A DNA stretch of 64,000 nt, taken from assembly GCA_976551045.1 (NCBI GenBank), contig CDPCPM010000060.1:4712001-4776000 (forward strand), read 5' to 3'. The translations under genes and the position numbers were made by a program. This document shows, piece after piece, positions 9,536-63,180 of this stretch (positions are counted from its first letter, which is position 1; every line of letters begins with the position of its first letter). This DNA is from Glaucostegus cemiculus. Lineage: Eukaryota. The notes beneath the pieces were generated by a model. It was given only the letters and a program-made list of their open reading frames with translations. It had not been told where the DNA came from and made no database searches.

Positions 9536-9780
9536 ACAGATATTTACTCTTTGTGAGTTTTGGGCAATTTCTCAAGATGCTTTACTAGAAACAGATAATT
9601 AGAGATGAGGTTATCAGTACCTAAAGCAAACAGGATGTGTCTCATGATTGAAAAGTACTACAATTAGTTTTAACAATTAAAAAGTCATCATGTAGATGGA
9701 ACATACAGCATGGTTCTCCTCTAATCTTGATGGTATGGAGAAATCCAACATGCAAAAAAATAGAGCCCATGTACATACAT

Positions 9781-9990
9781 GAGGGGGAAGAGAGGGGGAA
9801 GAGAGGGGGAAGAGAGGGGGAAGAGAGGGGGAAGAGAGGGGGAAGAGAGGGGGAAGAGAGGGGGAAGAGAGGGGGAAGAGAGGGGGAAGAGAGGGGGAAG
9901 AGAGGGGGAAGAGAGGGGGAAGAGAGGGGGAAGAGAGGGGGAAGAGAGGGGGAAGAGAGGGGGAAGAGAGGGGGAAGAGAGGGGGAGAAA
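9781..9990 (+). repeat. Homopurine minisatellite (GAGGGGGAAGA)x18 plus a partial unit
   Basis: Perfect 11-bp period read directly; it accounts for the spurious repetitive ORFs at 9642-10047. Confidence 0.97.
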
Positions 9991-10197
9991 TCAGAGAAAG
10001 CTTTGAGATTCATCTTTTGTCATTCATATGTATTACTTAAGAAATAAAGATGTTTATAAAATATCCAGACTGAACAGCCTAATATATCGTTATTAACAGG
10101 TTGCCTTCTTAGGCCATCTTGGCCTTCTTAGGCCATCTTTTGGGGTGAAGGATGATTTGCTTCCAGTTCTGAGGACTGGAAGGTCCCTGTACAGGAA

Positions 10198-11680
10198 TTG
10201 GCAAGTGGGGTTAAAGAAAATCCCAAGGTTTTTTTTTCCACTTATGTGAAGAGCAGAAGAATGATGAGAGTAAAGGTAGGACCGATAGAGACAAAGGTGG
10301 GAAGATGTGCCTGGAAGCTGTGGAAGTGGGTGAGGTTTTCAATGAATACTTCTCTTCCATATTCACCAAACAGAGGTGCCTGGATGACGCTGATGACAGT
10401 GTTGGTAAGGTTAATGTTCTGGAGCATGTAGATATCAAGAGAGAGAATGTGTTGGAGCTGTTAGAAAATATTAGGACAAATAAGTCGCCGGGGCCTGACG
10501 GAATAATCCCCAGGCTGCTCTGCAAGGTGAGGGGGGAGATTGCTGAAGCGTTGGCTAGGATCTTTGAGTCCTTGTTGTCCACAGGAATGGTACCAGAGGA
10601 TTGGAGGGTGGCAAATGTTGTCTCCTTATTCAAAAAAGATAGTAGGGATAGTCCAGGGAATTACAGACCAGTGAGCCTTACGTCTGTGATGGGTAAGCTG
10701 TTGGAAAGGATTCTTAGAGATAGGATCTATGAGCATTTAGAGAATCATGGACTGATTAGGGACAGCCAGCATGGCTTTGTAAAAGGAAGATCATTTCTCA
10801 CAAGCCTGATAGGGTACTTTAAGGAAGTGACCAGGCAGATTGATGAGGGCAGTGCAGTAGATGTGGTCTACATGGATTTTAGTAAGGCGTTTGACAAGTT
10901 CCACATGGTAGGCTTCTTCAAAAGGTCAGAGGGCAAGGAATCCAGGGAGACTTGGCCATGTGGATTCAGAATTGACTTGCCTGTAGAAAGCAGAGGGTTG
11001 TGGCAGAGGGAGTGCATTCAGATTGGAGGGCTGTGACCAGCAGTGTCCCACAAGGATCGGTTCTCGGACCTCTACTTTTCATGATATTTATTAGTGACTT
11101 GGGTGAGGAGGTAGAAGGGTAGATTAGCAAGTTTGCAGACGACACAAAGGTCGGTGGTGTTGTGGATAGTGTGGAGGGCTGTCAAAGATTGCAGTGAAAT
11201 ATCGGTAGGATGCAGAGCTGAGCTGAGAAGTGGCAGACGGAGTTCAATCGAGAGAAGTGTGAGGTGGTACACTTTGGAAGGACAAACTCCAAGGCAGAGC
11301 ACAAGGTTAATGGCAGGATTCTGGGGAGTGTGGAGGAGCAGAGGGATCTGGGGGTTCATATCCACAGATCACTGAAAGTTGCCTCACAGGTGGATAGGTT
11401 AGTTAGGAAAGCTTATGGGATGTTAGCTTTCATAAGTCGTGGGATCGAGTTTAAGAGCCACAAGGTAATGATGCAACTCTACAAAATTCTGTTTAGACCA
11501 CACTTGGAGCACTGTGTCCAGCCTGGTTGCCTCATTATAGGAAGGATGTGGAAGCATTGGAAAGGGTCCAGAGGAGATTTCCCAGGATGCTGCCTGGTTT
11601 GGAGAGTATGGATTATGAGGAGAGACTAAGGGAGCTAGGGCTTTACTCTTTGGAGAGAAGGTGGATGAGGGGAAACAAGA
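10198..11680 (+). mobile_element. Outer 5'-truncated CR1 LINE, left part (RT region with frameshifts and stops)
   Basis: ORF pieces contain NYRPVSLTS, SQHGFVKGRS, VDVVYMDFSKAFDK, FADD (11132-11143) and RPHLEHCVQ. The sequence breaks at ...RMRG and resumes at 14807. Confidence 0.93.
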
Positions 11681-14600
11681 GATCATTGGGATCTCTTCTC
11701 AGGAAGGTGGGACCTGTACAGACAGGACGGGTTACACCCGAACCAGAAGGGGGCCAATATCCTTGCGGTTCAGTTTGCTAGAGTGGTTGCGGAGGGTTTA
11801 AACTAATTTGTGAGGGGGATGGGAACCGGAGGAGTAGGGCAGAGGAAGAAAGGGATGGAGAAGAGTTGGATCGAGCAGGTAGAGAGGCTTTGGGGAAGGA
11901 GAGGCAGGGTGCAGGCTATAAAAGTGGTAAAGTGGATGGACTAAAGTGTGTTTACTTTAATGCGAGAAGTGTCAGGAATACGGGAGATGAATTGAGGGCT
12001 TGGATAAGTATGGGGGACTATGATATTGTAGCTATAACTGAGACATGGCTGTCATCAGGACAGGAGTGGATATTGAACATTCCTGGTTTTCAGTGTTTAA
12101 AAAGGGATAGGGAAGGGGGAGAGAAGAGGAGGAGGGGTGGCGATATTGGTCAGGGATGATGTTATGGCTGCAGAAAGGGTGGATTTTGTGGAAGGATCCT
12201 CTTTCGAGTCGGTGTGGAAGTGAGGAACAGGAAAAGTGCGGTTACACTGCTGGGAGTATACTATAGGCCCCCCGGTAGCAGTAGAGATATAGAGGAGCAG
12301 ATTGGCAGGCAGTGTTTGGACAGAAGCAAAGATAATAGGGTTGTAATAATGGGGGATTTCAACTTCCCGAATATAAACTGGGACATGCTCAGTGCCAAAG
12401 GTTTAGATGGGAACGAGTTTGTTAAGTGTGTCCAGGATGGATTCCTGATGCAGTATGTTGACAGGCCGACTAGAGGGAATGTGGTGTTAGATCTGGTTTT
12501 AGGAAATGAACTGGGACAGGTGAGGGATCTACTGGTGGGTGAGCATTTGGGGGACAGTGATCATTGCTCGATAAGCTTTAGAATTGTCATGGACAGAGAT
12601 AGGTGCAGAGAGGACAGGAAGATATTTAATTGGGGAAGGGCAGACTATGAGGCTATAAGGAGAGAACTTATGAGTGTAAATTGGTAAGTCCTTTTTGAGG
12701 GGAAGTGTACTGTGGAGATGTGGACGTTGTTGAGGGATGTTTTACAGGACGTTAGGGATAAATATGTCCCAGCGAAACAGAGGAGGAATGGCAGGGTGAG
12801 GGAACCGTGGGTGACGAGAGAGGTGGAACATCTGGTTAGGAGGAAGAAGGCGGCTTATGTACCGTGTAAGAGGCAAGGCTCGGATGTGGCCTGTGAGGAA
12901 TATAGTACAGTGAGGAAGGAACTTAAGAAAGAGCTGAGGAGAGCTAGAAGGGGTCATGAAAAGATGTTGGCTCGTAGGGTTAAGGAAAATCCCAAGGCTT
13001 TTTTCTCATATGTGAAGGGCAGAAGGGTGGCTAGGGTGAAGGTAGGTCCAATTAAGGATAAAGGTGGGAGGATGCACCTGGAGGCAGCAGAAGTAGGGGA
13101 GGTACTGAATGAATACTTCTCTTCCGTATTCACCAAGGAGAGGGGTCTGGATGACACAACACAGAGTGCTGGTAAGGGTAATGTTCTTGAGTGTGTAGCT
13201 ATCAAGAGGGAGGAGGTGTTGAAATTGTTAAATAATATCAAGACGGATGAGTCTCCGGGGCCTGACGGAATATTCCCCAGGCTGCTTCGAGAGGCGAGGG
13301 AGGAGATTGTTGATCGGCTGGTGAGGATCTTTGAGTCCTCGTTGTCCACGGGGATGGTGCCGGAGGATTGGCGGGTAGCGGATGTTCTTCACTTGTTTAA
13401 GAAAGGTAGTAGGGATAGTCCGGGAAATTACAGACCGGTGAGTCTCACGTCTGTGGTGGGTAAGCTGATAGAAAGGATTCTGAGGGATGGGATCTATGAG
13501 CACCTGGAGAGTCAGGGACTGATTAGGGACAGTCAGCATGGCTTTGTGAAGGGAAGATCTTGCCTCACGAGCCTGATAGAATTCTTTGAGGAGGTGACGA
13601 GGAAGCTTGATGAGGGTAGTGCGATGGATGTAGTCTATATGGATTTTAGTAAGGCGTTCAGTAAGGTTCCTCATGGCAGGTTTCTTCAGAAGGTCAGAGG
13701 TCGAAGCATCAAGGGGAGTTTGGCTGTGTGGATCAGGAATTAGCTTTCCTGTAGAAAGCAGAGGATTGTGGTGGAGGGAGTACCCTCGGATTGGAGGGCT
13801 GTGACTAGTGGTGTCCCGCAGGGATCGGTTCTGGGGCCTCTACTCTTTGTTATATTTATAGATGACTTAGATGAAGGAGTGGAAGGATGGGTTGGTAAGT
13901 TTGCGGATGACACCAAGATCGGCGGTGTGGTAGATAGTGTGGAGGACTGTCGGAGCTTACAAAGGGATATTGATAGGATGCAGAGCTGGGCGGACAGGTG
14001 GCAGATGGAGTTTAATCCGGAGAAGCGTGAGGTGGTGCACTTTCGGAGGACGAACTCCAGGGCAGAGTATGAGGTAAATGGTAAGGTACTTGGCAGTGTA
14101 GAGAAGCAGAGAGATCTGGGGGTTCATATCCACAGTTCACTCAAAGTTGCCTCGCAGGTGGATAAGACAGTTAAGAAGGCTTATGGGATGTTAGCTTTTA
14201 TAAATCGTGGGATTGAGTTCAAGAGCAGAGAGGTGATGATGCTGCTTTACAAAACTCTCGTTAGGCCGCACTTAGAATATTGTGTTCAGTTCTGGTCGCC
14301 GCATTATAGGAAGGATGTGGAGGCGTTGGAGAGGGTACAGAGGCGATTTACCAGGATGATGCCTGGATTAGAGGGTATGGAATATGAGCAGAGGCTTAAG
14401 GAGCTAGGGCTCTACTCGTTGGAGGAGGAGGAGGATGAGAGGGGACTTGATAGGGGTGTATAAGATATTGAGAGGAATAGATAGAGTTGACAGCCAGCGC
14501 CTCTTTCCCAGAGCGCAGATGCACAAGACAAGAGGGCATGGCTTTAAGATAGTGGGTGGAAAGTTTAGGGGAGATGTCAGAGGGAAGTTTTTCACCCAGA

Positions 14601-14809
14601 GAGTGGTTGGTGCATGGAATGCACTGCCTGGGGTGGTAGTAGAGGCAGATACGTTGGACAGGTTCAAGAGATTGTTAGATAGGCACATGGAAGAATGTGG
14701 AATAGTAGGATATGTGGGAGGAAAGAGTTAGATTGTGAGACGTTTGAAGGATGGCACAACTTGGTGGGCCAAAGGGCCTGTTTTGTGCTGTATTGTTCTA
14801 TGTTCTATG
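11681..14809 (+). mobile_element. Inner CR1 LINE nested in the outer CR1 (ORF1 3' end, full-length but disrupted ORF2, 3' UTR, tail)
   Basis: Begins with the ORF1 C-terminus DHWDLFSGRWDLYRQDGLHPNQKGANILAVQFARVVAEGLN* (11681-11806), then APE (FNARS, TETW, GDFN, SDH) and RT ([12 protein letters not shown]); ends in TGTTCTATGTTCTATG. Confidence 0.95.
11797..14731 (+). pseudogene. CR1 ORF2 (APE endonuclease + reverse transcriptase), disrupted
   Basis: ORF pieces 11866-12159, 12214-12687, 12712-13743, 13768-14463 and 14435-14731 tile a complete ORF2; in-frame stops at 12685 and 13741 and small frameshifts near 12120, 12215 and 14430. Confidence 0.92.
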
Positions 14810-15175
14810 ATAGAGGTATACAAAATATTAAGAGGAATAGATAAAGTAGATAGCCAGTGCCTCTTTCCCAGGGCACCAATGCTCAATTCAAGAGGGCATG
14901 GCTTTAAAATAATGGGTGGGAATTTCAAGGGAAATATCAAAGGGAGCTTTTTTTTACCCAGAGAGTGGTTGGTGCGTGGAATGCACTGCCAGGGGCAGTG
15001 GAGGCAGTTGCATTGGTCAAGTTCAAGAGATTGTTAGATAAGCATATGGAGGAATTTAAAACAGGGGGCTATGTGGGAGGAAGGGGTTAGATAATCTTAG
15101 GCATGGTGTAAAGGTCAGCACAACATGGTTGGCTGAAGGGCCTGTATTATGCTGTATTGTTCCATGGTTCTATGG
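14807..15175 (+). mobile_element. Outer CR1 LINE, right part (ORF2 C-terminus, 3' UTR, tail)
   Basis: Resumes with ATGATAGAGGTATACAAA (MIEVYKILRG), which continues ...RMRG at 11670. Tail TTCCATGGTTCTATG; candidate TSD GGAATT at 10194-10199 and 15174-15179. Confidence 0.9.
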
Positions 15176-38900: not shown

Positions 38901-40409
38901 CAATTAAAATCGCAATAAAACTTAGTTATCTAATATTGCAGGTTCTGGTAATACTCTCAAATCATACCTCGAGCAAACTTTTGGAAGTGTCATTGGGATC
39001 TGCCGTATTTTTATTTGCCAAAGTTAACTCCAGTGATCTATATCTGGCATCATTGTGTCAAATGCTGTGAAGTTATAATGAAAGCTGCATAAAGAAGCTA
39101 CCCTTTGGCCAAGCAAAATGGAGATGATTTGGTAATCAAGAAATCTAAAACCCACAGTTGCTGGAAATTTGAAATAAAAGTAAACTGCTGGAAATACTTA
39201 GCATTTCCTATGGAAAGAGAAACAGCTTTAAATGCTTCATGTCCAAATTCCTTCACTAGAAGGGTCTCAGACCTGAAACCTTAACTAAGATTAGTTAATT
39301 CCCTTGTCAAGAAAATTTGTTATGCAAATGGTTGTAAATGCCTGAGATTGTTGTTATTCTATATTACTCTCCTCCATTCACTGCATTGTTCCTGGAAAAA
39401 TTACAAAGTGAATGGAGGGTTGGCAGAAGTTGTTGCAGCTTCTGTTTCCTCCATTCTTTAAACAAACTTTTGTTTACTGCCCAAATTAACCATAGTCCTG
39501 TACAATAGATGGTTTACTTTGAGTCGTGTGATCTGTCCACCCCCAGCTCATTGCCTGACTTTAAGACTCTCAATACTTGATAAAAGAAAATGCTGCAACC
39601 AAGCATCAGGTCAGACAGCTTCTGTGGAGAGAGAAACACAGTTAGCATTCCAGCTCTGCAATCTTTCATCAGAACTAGAAGATGTGAGAGATACAAGAGG
39701 TTTAAAGCAACTTCAGAGGCATGGGCAAATGAGAAGATGTGCAATTGGGTAGAAGACAGGAGTGCTCAAATTAACAACAGAGATCAAGGAAAAAGCCCAA
39801 TGTGTGTTGCTGTAGGACTAATAATAGTACTGGATCAGGTATTACTGACAACAACAAAATCATCACCAGCTTATGTTGTCCAAAAAAAAACAGGTTGTAA
39901 AATATAAAAATGACATCCTGGAAAGCAGAATTCTCTAGGGTATCATCCAAGGGCTTTATGATACGAGACAATGTTCTAACCTTTTGGCCAATGAGATACA
40001 AATCTTTACTTTCATCTATTTGAACTTATCTTGCCAGCGAAGTAAAGTTTTCCCTCCACCATCTCCATTCTTCAGACAGGTTAAGCCTGGAAATCTACTG
40101 GCTCAAGCCTTTTTACTTGTTCAATGATAATACTATCGAAATTGATTCACAATCATGTATTATCTTTATTTTATGGCAGCGAGTCTGAATTTCATAGTTT
40201 GAGTATCCAGCACATCTGTCCACATGCATCAGTATCACTCACTAGGATATTGGAAGATACGTGGCAAGTTGAACTAAGTTCATTTTTAAAAGCAGAAATT
40301 TCAGAGACCAAGCCCCCTTTTTTTTCTCCACGCCTCTTATCACACAGGCCAATAGATGCTTGGAAAGCAATTGATCACATAGTACAAGTCACATGTTAAT
40401 ATGTTAATA

Positions 40410-41570
40410 TTAGCACACTGGGCTTTAACAGACCTCTCCGCAACTGGATACTGGACTTTCTCACTAGCAGTCCACAGACACTCAAAATAGGAGAAAAATC
40501 CTCGAGCACCATCTCACTGAGCACTGGCTCCCCTCAGGGCTGTGTGCTCAGCCCGCCCCTGTTCACCCTGCTGACCTATGACTGCGTGGCCAGATCCTGC
40601 TCCAACCACATTGTTAAATTTGCTGACGACACGACAGTGGTGGGTCTCATCACGAACAATGATGAGACAAACTATAGAGAAGAGGTGAAGCAACTGGCCA
40701 TGTGGTGCAGCAACAACAACCTCTCCCTGAATGTGGAAAAAAACAAGGAGATGGTAGTTAATTTCAGGAAAGGTCGCTGTGTGCACACCCCGCTGACAAT
40801 CAACGGGTCTGCGGTGGAACAAGTCAGCAGCACCAAGTTCCTGGGGGTGCACATCGCTGATGACCTGACCTGGTCCATTAACACCAAAGCCCTCACCAAG
40901 AAAGCCCAGAAACACCTCTACTTCCTGCAGAGATTGAGGAAAGTGAACTCCCATCCTTCTATTATGAAAACTTTTTATAGAGGGACCATTGAGAGTATCC
41001 TGACACACTGCATCGCTATCTGGTATGGAAGCTGCTCAGCTGCTGGACGGAAATCCCTGCAGAGAATAGTGAGAGTGGCAGAGAAGATCATAGGTGTCTC
41101 TCTACCCTCTATTGCAGATGTATATATGGACTGATGTGTCAGAAAGGCCACAAACATAATGTTGGACCCTTCTCACCCCTCCTACCATCTCTTTACACTC
41201 TTGCCATCTGGGAGAATGTTCCAGTGCATCCGGGCAAGGATGCATCCAGACTGTGCAATAGCTTCTTCCCACAAGCTATCAGAACCATGAACTCCCTCAT
41301 CCCTCCCGCCAACACCAAAGGATGCTTGGCATACAAGAATGCACCAGCACTTTACATATGTCCGTTGTTTGCTGCCTCAGTATGCTCACTTTAAGACTGT
41401 TTATTCGAGTTGCTATTTAATTTTGTGGTTCCAATGTTGTTAATGTCTTTGTGTCTCTCATTGTTTTTTTTTTAATGAGACGAGCACCTTGATCTGTGGA
41501 GTACGGTATTTCGCTCCTATACATGCTGAATGTGTATATGGAAGTGACAATAAAACTGATTCTGATTCTA
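40410..41570 (+). mobile_element. Rex1/Babar-clade LINE, 5'-truncated (RT C-terminal half + 3' UTR)
   Basis: [57 protein letters not shown]; ends AATAAAACTGATTCTGATTCT. Confidence 0.92.
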
Positions 41571-53284: not shown

Positions 53285-56200
53285 TACAAGAAAATAGGAG
53301 GAGAAGTAGGCCACCAGTCCTCTTAAGCCTGCCTCACCATTCAAGGCTGATCTATGCTGGCCTCACCTCTTCTGTACCGGTTCTGCAAAAACCCTCTCAG
53401 AGGAGAAATTACTAAACACCTATGTTTTAAATGACCAACACCTTATTTTGTATCTATGTCCCCTTGTTTGTAATTCTCCCACCAGTGAAAACATCTCTAC
53501 ATCTACCTTGTCAATCCTCCATAGGATCTTGTATGTTTGAATAAGGTCAGACCCCATTCTTTGGAACTCCAAGGAATACAGATACAACCGTCTAGCCTCT
53601 CTGGATAGGACAACCCTCTTATCCCAGGAATTAACAGTGAATATCCCCTGGACCCTCCCCAGTGCTACTATATCCCTTTCTATTCATAAGGTAAGTGTTC
53701 CAAAACTGTATCCCTAACGTCACCTCATCAACACCTCATACAAATGTAAGGAAACCTTCCCATTCTTAAACTCTAACCCTTTCACAATAAACACCATTTC
53801 CTTTCTTAGCTATATGTGGACCAGCCTGCTAACATTTGATTCATGCACAGGAGCACCTAGATACCTTTGAAATTCACTCATTTTTCAGGTCTCTCTCAAT
53901 TTAGATAATAACCTAACTTTTGATTCCTCTTACTGAAGTGCATGATCTCACATTTTTCCACATTAAACTCCATTCACCAGGTTTTCACCCAATCACCCAA
54001 TCTATCTATATCCCACTGCAGAATCACAATGTCCTCTTTACAACATGCCCTTCGACATATCTTGTAACATTGCAAATTTGGAAACTTTACATTTCATTCC
54101 TGCTTCCATGTCATTAGCGTACACAGTAAACAAGTGAGGGCCAAGAATTAATCCCTGTGATACTCCACTATTTATGTCCCTCCAGCTTAATAAAGATCCA
54201 TTTATTCCAACTCTGTTTTCCATGAAACAGCCAGTTTTCAATCTAATACATTTCCTCCAGTATCTTGGGCTCTTAATTTATGCACCTTGCCAAATTCCTT
54301 TCGAAAACTAAATTCATTACAGCAGAGCCCTGGGGAGTGGTACAGAACGGAGGGACCTTGGGATACAAGTACATGGTTCACTGGAAGTAGAGTCACAGGT
54401 ATACAAGGTAGTGAAAGGAGCTTTAGGCACACTAGCCTTCATAAGTCAGGGCATTGAGAATAAAAGTTGGGAGGTCATAGTGCAGTTGTACAGGATGCTG
54501 TTGAGGCCATACTTGGAATATTGTGTTCAGTTTTGGTCACCTGCTATAGGAAAGATGTTATTAATCTGGAAGGAGTACAGAAAACATTTACAAGCAGGCT
54601 GCCAGGACTTGAGGACTGAGTTATAGGGAGAGGTTGGACAGGCTGGGACTTTATTCCTTAGAGCATAGGAGACTCAGAGATGATCTTACAGAGGTGTATA
54701 AAAATCATGAGAGGCATAGGTATAGTGAATGAACTCAGCTCCCCACCCCTGCCACCAGAGTTGGTGAATCAAGAACTGGAAGGCATAGGTTTAAGGTGAG
54801 AGGGGAAAGATTTAAGAGGAACATGAGGGGCAACTTTTTTTTTTACACAATAGTCATATCTATGTGGAATCAGCTGCCAGAGGAAGTGGCTGAGGCAAGT
54901 AGAATAACAACTTCTAAAAGACAGTTGGATAAGTACATGGAATGAAAAGGTTTAGAAGGTTATGGGCCGAATGGTGGCAAATGGGACTAGCTTGGATGGG
55001 GCACTTTGGTCAGCATGGATCAGTTGGGCGGAAGGACCTGCTTCTGTGCTGTATGATTCTATGACATCAACAAGTTCCTTTCAATCAACTGTTCTAGTCA
55101 CATCCTCAAAGAATTCAAGCAAATTTGTCAATCATGATTTACCTTTCATAAAACTATATTGAAGAGGTATGATTATATTAAGCTTTCCCAAATCATTAGC
55201 CATTTGCTCTTTGTTTACTGACTCTACTATCTTGCCAACAATGGCTGTTAAAATATCTGGCCTGTTGTTCCCCACTGTCTGTTGTCCACCCTTTTTTTGA
55301 ACAAGGGAGTTATATTGTCTGTTTTCCAATCCTCTGAATTTAGCAAGTTTTGAAATTTTTCAACCAATGGGTCTACTATCTCTGCAGCACCTTCCTTTAA
55401 AACAAAACAAAAACAAAAATGGGTGCAGGCAACGTCCCAGTGATTTATCAACCTTTCGCCCTCTGAGTTTCTCAAATACTTTATCCTTTGTGATTGGAAT
55501 TTTTATAATCATGTTATTTGAAATTGGCCCATCTATTATCTCAGGGATATTTGCTGTGTCCTCCACAGAAAAGATTTAATATTTCTGCCATTCCTGTGTT
55601 TCCTGTTATTAATTCATCAGCCTTGTTCTTCAGAGTCTCACACTTCCCTTAGCTGCCTTCTTTCTATTTATATACCCACATAAACCCTTAGTGTTTGTTT
55701 TGATAATACAGGCAGGTTTTCTCTCAAAAATCAATTTCCCCCTTATGAGTTTTAAAAAAATCTTTTGCTGCTAGATCCTAAAACTTTCCGAGTCCTCAGG
55801 CCTACCGCCACCTCATGCCACTTCATGTGCCTGACTTCTCAACTTAATGTTATCCTTGATATTCTCTGTTATTTACGGATTGTGCCCGTTTCTCATTGGA
55901 TATCTCTTTCTAATTGGAATAAATTCCTGCTGAGCATTATGGACCAGCTGTTTGAAAAGCTGCCCCTGGTCATTGATTGACCTGTCTCTCATCTTATTTT
56001 CCTAGTCTACCTTACACAACTCCATCTTCATATCATTATAATCACCCTTAAGTTGAAGAACATGGTTTTTGTCCTGTGGTGTCCACCCTCAAATTGCATC
56101 TGGAATTCTTTCCTATTGTGGTCACTATCCCCCAGGAGATGTTTAACCATAAGATCTCTTACTATTCCTTCCTCAATAATCATGACCATATCTAAAATAG

Positions 56201-56436
56201 CCTTTTCCCTGGTAGGGTCTGTAAGATACTGTTCTAAGAAGCAATTCCTGGCACATTCCATAAATTTTTCTTCTACAATGCCCTTGCCAGTTTGGCCTGT
56301 CCAAATTAAAATCTAATTGCATGTTCCCTTCAAAGATATCCTAGATATTTCCCCACTTATGCTCCACCTTATAGAGGGGTAATATTTCAGGGGCCTATAG
56401 ACGTATGTCTTCTTTCCCTTGCCTATTCATGATATC
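53285..56436 (-). mobile_element. Old CR1 (APE to 3' UTR) hosting two later CR1 insertions; continues at 60342-60420
   Basis: Minus-strand ORFs: FLEQYLTDPTREKAILD..LGDSDH, NNRPDILTAIVGK, SGVSQGLILGP..KFA; 3' UTR near 53290-53360. Confidence 0.85.
54321..55064 (+). mobile_element. 5'-truncated CR1 inserted antisense into the older CR1
   Basis: LAFISQGIE...RPYLEYCVQFWSP; tail GCTGTATGATTCTATGAC. Confidence 0.88.
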
Positions 56437-56466
56437 GGTATCTTATCCTAGATTCGATAAGATATC

Positions 56467-57090
56467 GAGAATCGGTATCTTATCCTAGATTCCGTTGGAG
56501 GGGATGACCCGGCAGAAGAAGATCATGGCAACCGGGACATTGACACCGCACCTGGTACTGTGGTCAGGGGGGTTAAGAGCAATATAGTGGTTATAGGAGA
56601 CTCGATAGTGAGGGGGACAGATAGCAGATTCTGTGAGTCCGACAATGTATCCCGGATGGTGTGTTGCCTCCCTGGTGCCGGGGTAAGGGATATCACGAAC
56701 CGGTTCCAGAATATCCTGAGGAGAGAGGGGGAACAGCCAGAGGTCTTGGTACATGTTGGCACCAATGACATAGGCAGGAAAGGAGAAGGGGTCCTGAAGG
56801 AAGAATACAGAGAGTTAGGAAGGAAGTTGAGGAGAAGGACCCCTAAGGTGGTAATCTCAGGATTGCTGCCTGTGCCACGTGCAAGCAGTAGCAAGAACAG
56901 AAAGATTTGGCAAATAAACGCGTGGCTTAGTGACTGGTGCAGGGGGCAGGGCTTCAGATTCCTGGACCATTGGGACCTTTTTTGGGGGAGGGACGACCTA
57001 TACTGCAAGGATGGGTTACACCTCAACTCAAAAGGGTCCAGAGTCCTGGCGGGATTATTTAACATAGCTGTTGGGGAAGGTTTAAACTAA
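56467..57090 (+). CDS. CR1 ORF1p, SGNH/GDSL esterase domain (N-terminally truncated)
   Basis: Open frame ENRYLILDSVGGDD...VVIGDSIVRG...VHVGTNDIG...KDGLHLN...GEGLN*; the GDS, GxND and DxxH blocks are intact. Confidence 0.9.
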   Translation, partial: ENRYLILDSVGGDDPAEEDHGNRDIDTAPGTVVRGVKSNIVVIGDSIVRGTDSRFCESDNVSRMVCCLPGAGVRDITNRFQNILRREGEQPEVLVHVGTNDIGRKGEGVLKEEYRELGRKLRRRTPKVVISGLLPVPRASSSKNRKIWQINAWLSDWCRGQGFRFLDHWDLFWGRDDLYCKDGLHLNSKGSRVLAGLFNIAVGEGLN

Positions 57091-60000
57091 TCAAGCAGGG
57101 GGATGGGACCCAGAATATTAGGGTAAAAGTAGATAGAGGAAGGCAAGAGTTTAATAAAAATAGGTCAAAGTTAGTGCGTGATCAGGATGGCAAGACGGAC
57201 AGGCAGGTAATTAATCAAGGTAACATGCTGAATGACAATAGTACAGTAAATAAGGATATTAGGTCACAGAATGTTAGACGAGAGGTGGAGGCAGATAAAA
57301 AGAAGTCCATGACAGTGAGCAGTCAGGATCGTAAGAAGGGCGAGGAAATGGAAATTAAGGATAAGTTGCTCAAGAAAGGAAGCGCAACAAAATCAACAGT
57401 GGTTAATGAGCTAAAGGTATTATACTTAAATGCACGTAGCATCAGGAACAAGGCAGATGAACTAGCAGCACAGCTGCAGATTAATAGATATGACATTGTG
57501 GCAATTACTGAGTCGTGGCTGCATGATGGATGTGACTGGGAGCTCAATGTCCAGGGGTACACAGTGTATAGGAAGGATAGGCGGGAAGGTAGAGGGGGTG
57601 GTGTGGCCATGATGGTTAGTAATGAGATAAAATCAATAGAAAGGAAGGATATTAGGTCAGATGAAGTGGAAACTTTATGGGTGGAGCTAAGGAATAGCAA
57701 GAGTAAGAGGACAGTTGTAGCTGTTGTATATAGGCCCCCTAATAGCAATCAGGAGGTAGACCATAAGTTGCGGTTAGAGATAGAAAAGGCATGTCAGAGT
57801 GACAATATCAAAATAATTATGGGTGACTTTAACATGAAGGTGGACTGGGAAACCCAGCAAGGCAGCAGTTCTCAGGAGAGCGAGTTTGTTGAATGTTTAC
57901 GGGATGGCTTTTTGGAACAACTTGTTGATGAGCCCACCAGGGGATCGGCTGTTTTGGATTGGGTGTTGTGTAATGAACCGGAGGTGACTAGAGAACTAAG
58001 GGTAAAGGAACCATTAGGAACTAGTGACCATAATATGATTGAGTTCAGAATGAAATTTGAAAAGGAGAAGCTGATGACTGGAGTGTCGACATTTCAGTGG
58101 AGCAAGGGGAATTACAGAAGGATGAGAGACGAGTTGGCCCAGATTGATTGGGAATATAAGCTTGCTGGAGGGACGGCCGAACATAAATGGGTGGAATTTA
58201 AGCAAGTAATAAAGAAAATGCAGGACAGACACATTCCAAGAAAAAAGAAGGTTTTAAATGGAAAAAGGGCACAAATGTGGATAACGAGAGAGGTGAAAGC
58301 TAAAATAAGAGCAAAAGGGAGGGCATATAAGGTAGCAAGAAAAAGCGGAAAAACAGAAGACTGGGAAACTTTTAAGAACCTACAGAAAGAAACTAAGAAG
58401 GTTATTAGAAAAGAAAAGAGAAATTACGAAATGAAGTTGGCAGAAAATATTCAAAAGGATACTAAGAGTTTTTTTAAATATATAAGAAGCAAAAGAGAGA
58501 CGTGGGTTGATATAGGACCGATAGAAAATGAGGTGGGAGAGATTATTATGGGTGATAAAGAGATGGCGGAGGTGCTAAATCAGTATTTTGCGTCGGTCTT
58601 CACGGTAGAAGATATTAACAATATACCGGTTAGTCAAGGGTCTCGAGGGACGGAATTAAAGACAGTTAAGGTTACGAGAGAGAAAGTGTTGGGGAAGCTA
58701 AATGGGTTAAAGACTGATAAGTCTCCGGGACCGGATGAGATACATCCCCGTGTACTGAAGGAAGTAGCTCTAGAAATAGTGGAGGCATTAGTGATAATTT
58801 TTCAGGAATCGATAGACGCTGGAGAGGTGCCGGAGGACTGGAAGGTCGCAAATGTAGTTCCATTGTATAAGAAAGGTGGGAGACAGCACAGAGGAAATTA
58901 CAGACCTATCAGTCTTACATCTGTGGTGGGGAAGATACTAGAATCGATCCTCAAGGATGAGGTGATGGGATACATGGAGGTGCAAGGCAAGATAGGTCCT
59001 AGTCAACATGGATTCGTGAAAGGAAGATCCTGCCTGACCAATTTATTGGAGTTTTTTGAAGAAATCTCAAGCAGGGTGGACAAGGGAGAGGCCGTAGATG
59101 TGGTGTATTTAGACTTTCAGAAGGCATTCGACAAGGTGCCGCACAAAAGACTAATTAGTAAGATGAGAGATCACGGAATAACGGGCAGGATAACAGAATG
59201 GGTGGAGAGTTGGCTGGATGGCAGGAAACAGAGGGTGGGAATAAAAGGATCGTGTTCTGGTTGGCTGCCGGTTACTAGTGGTGTTCCGCAGGGGTCGGTG
59301 TTGGGGCCCCTTCTTTTTACCTTATATATTAATGATTTAGACGAAGGAGTCAATGGGTTTGTGGCCAAGTTTGCAGATGACACTAAGATTGGGGGAGGAG
59401 TGGAGAGTATTGAGGAGACAGGAAAGCTACAGAGAGACTTGGATATTCTAGGAGAATGGGCGAAGAAATGGCAGATGAGGTTCAACGTGGAAAAATGTGC
59501 AGTTGTACACTTCGGAAGTAGAAATGGAAGGGCAGACTATTATCTAGAAGGAGATAAAATTGGAAGCACAGAAGTACAAAGGGACTTAGGGGTGCTCGTA
59601 CAGGATAACCTAAAGGTTAACCGCCAGGTTGGATCGGCAGTAAGGAAAGCGAATGCTATGTTGGCATTTATTTCGAGGGGTATAGTATATAAAAGCAAGG
59701 AAGTGTTGATGAGGCTATACGGGGCACTGGTGAGGCCTCACTTGGAGTACTGTGTGCAGTTTTGGGCCCCATACCTTAGGAAGGATGTGCTGATGTTGGA
59801 GAGGGTTCAGAGGAGATTTACTAGGATGATTCCTGGGATGAAAAAGTTTACATATGACGAGCGACTGTCGTCACTTGGACTGTACTCGTTGGAGTACAGA
59901 AGAATGAGAGGGGACCTAATAGAAACGTACAGGATGTTGAAAGGAATGGACCAAGTGAATGTGGTCAAGCTGTTTCCCTTGGTGGGGGAATCCAGGACAA

Positions 60001-60209
60001 GAGGACACAAACTTAGAATTAGAAGAAGCAGGTTCATAACAGAGATAAGGAGGAATTTCTTTAGCCAGAGGGTGGTGAACCTGTGGAACTCCTTACCACA
60101 GAGAGCAGTGGAAGCCAGATCATTGGGGATATTCAAGAAGGAAATAGATAGATATCTAATTGGTCAAGGTATCAAGGGATATGGAGATAAGGCAGGGATT
60201 TGGACTTAG
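57081..60209 (+). CDS. CR1 ORF2p: AP-like endonuclease + reverse transcriptase, uninterrupted
   Basis: The 1011-aa ORF in the track (57174-60209) is open upstream to 57063. APE motifs LNARS, TESW, YRPP, GDFN, SDH; RT motifs [12 protein letters not shown]. The start is given at the slippery site; the true initiation mode is unknown. Confidence 0.95.
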   Translation, partial: FKLIKQGDGTQNIRVKVDRGRQEFNKNRSKLVRDQDGKTDRQVINQGNMLNDNSTVNKDIRSQNVRREVEADKKKSMTVSSQDRKKGEEMEIKDKLLKKGSATKSTVVNELKVLYLNARSIRNKADELAAQLQINRYDIVAITESWLHDGCDWELNVQGYTVYRKDRREGRGGGVAMMVSNEIKSIERKDIRSDEVETLWVELRNSKSKRTVVAVVYRPPNSNQEVDHKLRLEIEKACQSDNIKIIMGDFNMKVDWETQQGSSSQESEFVECLRDGFLEQLVDEPTRGSAVLDWVLCNEPEVTRELRVKEPLGTSDHNMIEFRMKFEKEKLMTGVSTFQWSKGNYRRMRDELAQIDWEYKLAGGTAEHKWVEFKQVIKKMQDRHIPRKKKVLNGKRAQMWITREVKAKIRAKGRAYKVARKSGKTEDWETFKNLQKETKKVIRKEKRNYEMKLAENIQKDTKSFFKYIRSKRETWVDIGPIENEVGEIIMGDKEMAEVLNQYFASVFTVEDINNIPVSQGSRGTELKTVKVTREKVLGKLNGLKTDKSPGPDEIHPRVLKEVALEIVEALVIIFQESIDAGEVPEDWKVANVVPLYKKGGRQHRGNYRPISLTSVVGKILESILKDEVMGYMEVQGKIGPSQHGFVKGRSCLTNLLEFFEEISSRVDKGEAVDVVYLDFQKAFDKVPHKRLISKMRDHGITGRITEWVESWLDGRKQRVGIKGSCSGWLPVTSGVPQGSVLGPLLFTLYINDLDEGVNGFVAKFADDTKIGGGVESIEETGKLQRDLDILGEWAKKWQMRFNVEKCAVVHFGSRNGRADYYLEGDKIGSTEVQRDLGVLVQDNLKVNRQVGSAVRKANAMLAFISRGIVYKSKEVLMRLYGALVRPHLEYCVQFWAPYLRKDVLMLERVQRRFTRMIPGMKKFTYDERLSSLGLYSLEYRRMRGDLIETYRMLKGMDQVNVVKLFPLVGESRTRGHKLRIRRSRFITEIRRNFFSQRVVNLWNSLPQRAVEARSLGIFKKEIDRYLIGQGIKGYGDKAGIWT

Positions 60210-61799: not shown

Positions 61800-63180
61800 C
61801 AAGCCTGCACAGAAGAGTGAGAGAGCAGCAGTGATGGAGGTTTCAATCATTAGTAGGGGAGGGTGGGGAGAGGAAAGTAAGCATTTCAGTGGCTGTAGAC
61901 TCAACTCCAGGATGTGTTGTGTCCCTAACTCAGGATCAAGAGTGTCACTGGATAGCTGCAGAGCATCTGGAAAGGAAGCAGTGAACAAAGAGGTTGCGCT
62001 CCATATTGACATCAACAACATAGGTAAGGAAAGGAATGAGTACATGCAGACAAAGTTTAGGGAGCTAAAACAAAAGAGCTCAATGGTGGTAATCTCAGAG
62101 TTATTCGCAGTGACATGTACAAACAAGTACAGAAATAGGTGATTGGAGCAAATGAATGTATGGCTGGAGCGATGGTGCAGGATGAAGGGCTTTTGATTTC
62201 TGAAGCAAAAGGACAATTTTTGGGCCAGGATAGGCCTGTACAAATCAGACAGATTGCACCTCAGCAAGACTGGGACCAATATCCTCACAAGGAGGTTTGT
62301 TAGTGCTATTGGTGAGGATTGTTAAACTAGCTTGGCAGGAGATGGGAACCTCAAGCAGAATTCAAGGAGAGAAACAGAGCAGGAAGTGAAGGTTTGAAAA
62401 GTACTAAGTGAAATAAATAGACAGCAGGAACAAAGGCAAGCAGTAAATGGGAAAAATACAGAAAAAAATGTTAAAATGGAAAACTGAAGGTACCATATCT
62501 AAATGCTCACATTTGCAACGTAAATGAATTAATGGTACAAATAGAACATACTGTGTCTGTTTACTTCTAAGTGTCATTACAGAAACATGAGGAAACTGAA
62601 TGTTCAAGGAATATTTGGCAGGCAGAAAGGAAAAGGAGATGGTGAAAGGCTATATAAAGGGAGGAGATCAGTGCAGTGGTTAAAAATGATCTTAGATCAA
62701 CAGACATTATATATAATTACTGCCATTTGGGTTGGACCAAGAAAGAGAAAAGGGCAGGAAATATTGGGAGGAATTATTTATAGGCCACCAAATAGTAGCC
62801 ATAATAATGGGCATGGCATAACTCAGGAAATTAGAGGTCAGGATAACTTGGATAATATCATAATCATGGGGGACCTTTATCTATTCTTAGATGGGAGAAG
62901 TTAAATTAGTAGTAATGAGGTGGAAGATAAATTCATGGAATTAGTACAAAATGGTTTTCTTAATCAATATTTTGAAACCTAGTTTTGTTCAATGAGGAGG
63001 AGTTCATTGATAATCCTTTACAGAAGATTCACTATTGCTTGATACAATTCTTCAATCCAAAACTAGGGTCTTAAATCTAAACAAATCAAACTACAAGGGT
63101 GAGGAGTGAGAATACTTCCACAGATTGGGGAGCTTCACTAAAGGCATGGTGATGGGAATGTAGTGGCTAACATTTAAGAA
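61800..63180 (+). mobile_element. Old CR1: decayed ORF1 esterase and ORF2 APE
   Basis: RMCCVP..HIDINNIG..VVISEL, the junction GTTAAACTAG at 62321-62330, then YRPPNS..IIMGDL. Confidence 0.8.

Follow-up and report, generated by a model that had tools for sequence, protein, structure and literature searches.

How does a CR1 retrotransposon make its second protein when its endonuclease is preceded by no AUG? The question was raised by a preliminary description of a 64,000-nt stretch of Glaucostegus cemiculus DNA (hereafter the window), in which a CR1 copy has a slippery heptamer at the end of ORF1. Among the retrotransposons of most vertebrates, CR1-group elements dominate, according to the portion of PMC13343379 covered here, and we found no account in the literature of how they make the ORF2 protein. 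By sequence comparison, the ORF1-ORF2 junction carries a recoding-type signal that is genuine and deeply conserved in this major vertebrate LINE family. We consider it probably a programmed -1 ribosomal frameshift site common to vertebrate CR1 LINEs, which would give an ORF1-ORF2 fusion.

The CR1 copies and their junctions

Copy A (positions 11681-14810, plus strand, as for copies B and C and their features) is a decayed, 5'-truncated CR1 LINE nested in an older CR1 copy. The older copy (10198-11672 and 14811-15174) is 80% identical to copy A and was split within its ORF2 by the insertion; loose contig ends fall at 11677 and 11681 in the comparison of read contigs with copy A. What remains of copy A ORF1 is the C-terminal tail of an SGNH esterase (11681-11806), namely the last 41 codons, which share 63% identity with copy B ORF1 (E 1e-10) and end in Gly-Leu-Asn and the stop TAA (11804-11806). 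Its ORF2 (11941-14713), which encodes an APE endonuclease and a reverse transcriptase, has the first in-frame ATG at 12010 and is interrupted by two stops (12685 and 13741) and three frameshifts (near 12119, 12220, and 14420). Because copy A is dead, features of this single copy need comparison with relatives.

Copy B (56461-60209) lies directly downstream of an older, decayed CR1 fragment on the minus strand (55060-56402), and between the two is a short direct repeat (about 56431-56492). The ORF1 esterase domain of copy B (56581-57090; PF13472, E 5e-17) likewise ends in Gly-Leu-Asn and TAA (57088-57090). The ORF2 frame (57081-60209) passes through a 110-codon linker into the APE and reverse transcriptase domains and is uninterrupted over 1048 codons, which indicates that copy B is young. 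Copy C retains a decayed junction (62321-62346), with the heptamer broken by two extra bases and a degenerate G motif at the same distance. Elsewhere, the window contains a purine-rich tandem repeat (9700-10000), whose translations repeat in several frames, and a separate, more distant LINE fragment with a reverse transcriptase (40400-41134; 27% identity to copy B ORF2).

Vertebrate CR1 LINEs end 3' in short tandem repeats, not in poly(A), and two-copy repeats at 14794 (copy A) and 60326 (copy B) fit an end of this type. Pfam searches found PF03372, PF14529, and PF00078 in ORF2 of both copies, corresponding to APE endonuclease followed by reverse transcriptase, and identified ORF1 as an SGNH esterase, the nearest named homologues of which come from rays and sharks. 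Judged by eye, both copies closely resemble consensus rows labelled CR1 in the part of PMC13343379 covered. By their sequence divergence, copies A and B are independent CR1 subfamilies, which bears out the preliminary description: ORF2 identity is 47% and synonymous sites are saturated, with 32 of 111 four-fold sites identical (near chance) and the same codon used in 8 of 34 Gly pairs and 7 of 35 Leu pairs.

The junction reads GGT TTA AAC TAA in both copies. In copy A, the slippery heptamer T_TTA_AAC (11797-11803) is in the ORF1 frame and adjoins the stop; the ORF2 (-1) frame is closed by TAG (11779-11781) five codons before the heptamer and is then open as a 48-codon linker without ATG (11797-11940), reading FKLICEGDGNRRSRAEEERDGEELDRAG...LKCVYFNARS. 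In copy B (junction 57081-57107), the TAA that closes the -1 frame is at 57060, upstream of the heptamer (57081-57087). The G-rich motif GGGGGATGGG, a candidate stimulator, lies 10 nt 3' of the heptamer, beginning at the 11th base past it in both copies (11814-11823 in copy A and 57098-57107 in copy B). The pattern of heptamer, stop, gap, and GGGGGATGGG occurs twice in the window (copies A and B) and never in 100 shuffles, a result that shows rarity only, since the pattern was derived from these two copies themselves. A third GGG lies 34 nt past the heptamer in copies A (11837) and B (57121); by eye, it is not found in all of the consensuses described below. The preliminary description had already given the heptamer and the equal spacing of the motif, the closed and then open -1 frame, linkers of 48 and 110 codons, a first in-frame ATG inside the APE domain (ISMGD), an ORF-track start at 11866 that is a TTG, and the decayed junction sequence of copy C, and our reading agrees with it on all of these, coordinates included. 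It did not mention that copy A is truncated and decayed or that the linker of copy B contains in-frame ATGs.

Conservation of the heptamer and of ORF1 protein ends

GGT-TTA-AAC is expected at about 1% from the codon usage of copies A and B, yet it is identical in both. For a wider comparison, we used the vertebrate CR1-group consensuses in Supplementary Table 2 of PMC13343379, of which the first 400 letters each were searched and the junctions read by eye; within this span, the junction is visible only in truncated consensuses. Heptamer plus stop gave 23 matches, 18 of them at the end of an esterase ORF1, where the stop is TAG in 11, TAA in six, and TGA in one. These 18 rows represent sharks, rays, chimaera, bowfin, halosaur, coelacanth, bullfrog, lizard, and crocodilians (abbreviations expanded by us). 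Because a search with heptamer plus stop is circular, two controls were run with the same consensuses. Eleven of the possible synonymous spellings of the site yielded no junction among the 54 of 60 places listed. With anchors placed outside the heptamer, 15 junction rows were found: the full heptamer stands in 13, one row begins inside it, and the remaining row, a low-confidence gecko consensus, has a heptamer short by one A. Several of the anchors were picked from rows already known, and only four of the 15 rows were new.

The same bases were compared between copy A and contigs from four sequencing runs. None of the differences listed (40 of 109) falls at 11796-11805, and the ORF1 stop alternates between TAA and TAG, with TAG at 30-92% of depth in the four runs. 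The third positions of the G motif are also fixed, and its exact 10-nt spacing is found in copies A and B and in six of the 18 consensuses; in the others visible in the searched span, it is shifted (seven), cut off (one), and absent or unclear (four). As the sequences counted are kin, P values overstate the case. Heptamer and stop are conserved as nucleotides, and a heptamer common to the ORF1 ends of distant CR1 copies suggests a -1 slip of the ribosome and a fusion enzyme.

The protein ends of ORF1 were compared in the best 150 of 5931 representatives; in 98 of these, the catalytic His block lies 20-45 residues before the C-terminus. Asn is C-terminal in 68 of the 98 (Leu-Asn 52, Gly-Asn 10, and others six). 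For 51 of the 52 residues preceding Leu-Asn, a T-ending codon exists, compared with 17% of neighbouring residues for which none does, and the residue preceding Gly-Asn is Gln in 8 of 10. Leu-Asn and Gln-Gly-Asn ends match what T_TTA_AAC and G_GGA_AAC, respectively, would impose, although these tests are indicative only because the ORF1 proteins are kin to one another. Among esterases with a standard-length tail, 45 of 49 end in Leu-Asn, which stays terminal while tail length ranges from 24 to 38 residues; swallow, lizard, turtle, and frog proteins are among the named members. None of seven ZfL2-1-like esterases ends in Leu-Asn, so the esterase fold does not need it. Unnamed esterase ORF1s ending in Gln-Gly-Asn or Gly-Asn include P0071, P0079, P0080, P0085, P0087, P0088, P0150, and P0166, as well as P0151 and P0172. 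For this group, whose DNA a search did not recover, the protein ends predict a G_GGA_AAC slippery site.

Probable frameshifting and the alternatives

Under the frameshift reading, ribosomes would translate the esterase ORF1 and most would terminate at the codon after Leu-Asn. A minority would slip one base back on U_UUA_AAC, bypass the stop, and continue through the variable linker to the endonuclease and reverse transcriptase domains, so that a single fusion of ORF1 and ORF2 would be made in a low, fixed proportion, in the manner of Gag-Pol. We infer the slip and the fusion from the features of the cassette, namely an X_XXY_YYZ heptamer in the upstream frame, a -1 frame open beyond it (48 codons in copy A, 110 in copy B, and 65 in P0197, a stingray gene model), and a site conserved beyond protein-coding need.

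A 3' stem-loop or pseudoknot is a usual but not universal part of a -1 frameshift cassette. By a folding model that excludes pseudoknots and long-range pairs, there is no stable hairpin 3' of the heptamer (z 0.73 and -1.22) and the G motif forms no G-quadruplex; G4Hunter peaks (1.6 and 1.08) are inside the range of ORF2 itself, and no Rfam family was found downstream of the heptamer. A hairpin, an Rfam family, and a predicted G-quadruplex thus found no support as stimulators. More tentatively, pausing at the adjacent stop and the G-rich motif might together replace a pseudoknot, the motif being bound by a protein or folded as a G-quadruplex. In the published material covered, a nearby stop can matter for -1 shifting (an umbravirus example), and a natural G-quadruplex stimulator was anticipated but unknown according to a 2016 review (PMC5009743). 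Observations that count against frameshifting are the missing hairpin, the AUGs within the linkers of copy B and P0197, the AUGs that overlap the stop in some consensuses, the uneven register of the G motif, and the gecko consensus that is one A short.

The lack of an AUG, from which frameshifting had been argued in the preliminary description, is weak evidence by itself, and it is the conserved heptamer that carries the case. Shuffling a linker of copy A make-up (45 codons) leaves it free of AUG in 35% of cases; the copy B linker contains three in-frame ATGs, at 57225, 57309, and 57348, one of them in good context; in some consensuses, an AUG overlaps the stop; and initiation of LINE-1 ORF2 is regarded as independent of its AUG in the sources covered. 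The earlier inference of frameshifting finds good support, chiefly in the conservation of heptamer, stop, and G motif as nucleotides, whereas the missing AUG fails as its proof. An ancestral AUG in the subfamily of copy A was also looked for, and none was seen. In the ORF2 frame, the 15 linker differences listed (among the 40 of 109 listed overall) introduce neither a stop nor an ATG; in place of the TTG at 11866, TTA accounts for 98-99% of depth in three runs and for 7% in the run that is closest; and HypSab CR1-13, a related consensus from a stingray, has no in-frame ATG in the visible part of its gapped linker, with Thr at the position of copy A's first Met. Two candidate ORF2 starts were rejected, the TTG at 11866 because it is not conserved among runs and an ATG within the G motif because it lies in the ORF1 frame.

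The linker itself looks like a loosely constrained spacer, since only five of the 15 listed differences are synonymous when read in the ORF2 frame; three create stops in other frames. The ORF2 frame is free of stops over the 45 codons preceding APE in copy A and up to the first AUG in copy B, which shuffles reproduce in 5% and 2.6% of cases, respectively. In the copy B linker, the ORF2 frame is wholly open and the other two frames hold 8 and 19 stops. By eye, the linkers of ScyCan CR1-1a and SquAca CR1-6c are in frame in the searched span; most other consensuses drop bases there and are too gapped for frame counts. P0197 has the esterase, FKL, a 65-codon linker with one AUG, and APE in one frame, a joining that may stem from a base insertion in the copy or from annotation. 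This protein is the NCBI model hydroxyacid oxidase 2 isoform X1 (Hypanus sabinus), the printed parts of which are CR1 esterase, linker, and APE, and the naming is likely a misannotation.

The rival that survives best, although we regard it as unlikely, is termination-reinitiation or an AUG-independent start. ORF2 would then be a separate protein, begun at an AUG that overlaps the stop or lies near it, or at a near-cognate codon, and the conserved bases would serve termination or ribosome retention. A start of this sort has been proposed for LINE-1, whose ORF2 initiation is described as AUG-independent in the sources covered. An AUG does overlap the stop in three of the 18 consensuses (the related catshark consensus ScyCan CR1-1a, at the equivalent of 11806-11808, SquAca CR1-17a, and SquAca CR1-6c); it is absent in copies A and B, in which the overlapping codons, ATT and ATC, respectively, are both near-cognate. 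The linker AUGs of copy B and the database ORF2 P0196, with a called start two codons past the stop position, also favour such a start. However, the overlapping codon varies freely among the consensuses (ATG, ATT, GTT, GTG, GGT, AGC, GCT, GAT, and GAA in the searched span) and loses its A wherever the runs carry TAG. That this codon is variable and the heptamer is not favours frameshifting as the shared rule, with room for reinitiation in some families. Reinitiation also leaves unexplained the perfect X_XXY_YYZ heptamer and the swap between Leu-Asn and Gln-Gly-Asn. In calicivirus-type tethering, the motif UGGGA lies some 40-80 nt upstream of the stop. Here, UGGGA occurs at -96 and -117 (copy A), -117 (copy B), and -58 (copy C) relative to the stop, and the conserved one, at +16, would be on the wrong side for tethering of this kind.

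Less probable still is that the bases are conserved for some other reason, such as a required Leu-Asn C-terminus or an RNA or DNA cis-element for packaging, protein binding, or processing, with the slippery likeness incidental. The prevalence of Leu-Asn among standard-tail esterases would fit the former, and the G motif might bind a protein in a different role; the synonymous share of the linker differences indicates little protein-level constraint on the linker. A protein constraint would free third positions, but these are fixed, and Leu-Asn remains terminal despite the varying tails, while the solved ZfL2-1 fold and seven similar proteins do without it. Nor would such a reason explain the stop-free -1 frame preceding any AUG. 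Splicing or polymerase slippage at the junction, in place of a ribosomal event, seems very improbable: CTAAT in copies A and B resembles the branch-point consensus and the P0197 model joins ORF1 to ORF2 here, but the TAG and TGA variants in the searched consensus spans lose that match, a G run stands downstream instead of a pyrimidine tract, and runs of three T and three A would be short for slippage.

Programmed frameshifting may have a wider reach, which we put forward as a doubtful but possible extension drawn from the sequences. CR1 and the esterase-LINE relatives using G_GGA_AAC would share a retrovirus-like -1 frameshift kept for more than 400 million years, with a stop-adjacent slippery site, an unstructured G-rich motif at a fixed 10 nt, and an esterase-endonuclease-reverse transcriptase fusion. 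The stimulator, protein-bound or a G-quadruplex, would have no counterpart described so far in any host-genome element.

Significance and comparison with known systems

If frameshifting is true, the working enzyme would be an ORF1-ORF2 fusion, unlike that of LINE-1, the annotated ORF2 starts would be wrong, and a membrane-binding esterase would be tethered to the reverse transcriptase. The junction is a 27-base element that is testable in one reporter assay and possibly includes a natural G-rich stimulator. A turtle CR1 element described in 1997 reportedly has overlapping ORFs, and an earlier printed suggestion of a CR1 frameshift is quite possible. No report of a CR1 frameshift site was found in the literature covered, which did not take in the 1997 papers on chicken and turtle CR1, Kapitonov and Jurka 2003, or Repbase. 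The junction is not discussed in the main text and searchable supplement of PMC13343379, and the first 300,000 of the 449,034 characters of PMC5009743 contain no CR1 match.

Vertebrate CR1 DNA was found in none of the viral contigs, GTDB genomes, plasmids, or phages, and the copy A linker plus APE start gave no match as a query. Loci returned by pattern scans (1 and 14) have no CR1 similarity and were dismissed as chance matches. A metagenome scan gave three distant loci only. In these esterase LINEs, L001 (near 1106-1250), L002, and L003 (near 1248-1450), the copies are decayed and ORF1 and APE share one frame, separated by a single TGA with C as the next base; L001 and L002 have no Met before APE. 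Stop-codon readthrough in place of a frameshift is possible for these sequences. For two LINE-like proteins, P0006 and P0222, the database gives Pseudomonas aeruginosa and a Vagococcus MAG as the source; both are probably animal DNA in bacterial records.

Canonical vertebrate CR1 LINEs have an esterase ORF1 and an ORF2 with APE and reverse transcriptase, and the same junction is visible in their consensuses (PMC13343379, portion covered). The esterase of ZfL2-1 ORF1p (PDB 4C1B; PMC3905857) has the same SGNH fold as CR1 ORF1 (E 1.5e-37); it differs in that its relatives do not end in Leu-Asn, and the searched passages of that paper mention no frameshift or ORF1-ORF2 fusion. Within the searched part of PMC5009743, U_UUA_AAC and G_GGA_AAC are two of the four shiftiest sites named. 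The shifts of the IBV coronavirus (U_UUA_AAC) and of Gag-Pol in LTR elements described there resemble CR1 in the heptamer, the -1 overlap, and a polymerase placed after an abundant first protein. Unlike these sites, CR1 is a non-LTR element with a stop right after the A-site codon and an unstructured G-rich motif, and no stable 3' hairpin or pseudoknot was found. The same part of the review describes PRRSV, in which nsp1-beta and PCBP act on CCCANCUCC, 11 nt 3' of the shift site. By analogy, CR1 has a short low-complexity motif about 10 nt downstream and no RNA structure, although its motif is G-rich, not C-rich, and has no known binding protein. Among retrotransposons, HeT-A shifts within its gag (PMC5009743), and a frameshift together with a pseudoknot is described for some Penelope-like elements, in the sources covered. 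In Dictyostelium, the APE-type non-LTR elements TRE5-A and TRE3-A reportedly require a -1 shift to express ORF2, according to a statement in a review (PMC5911963, part covered); they differ from CR1 in clade and ORF1 type. Frameshifting by -1 is known from viruses and has been suggested for other LINEs; what would be new here, as far as we found, is its use by CR1.
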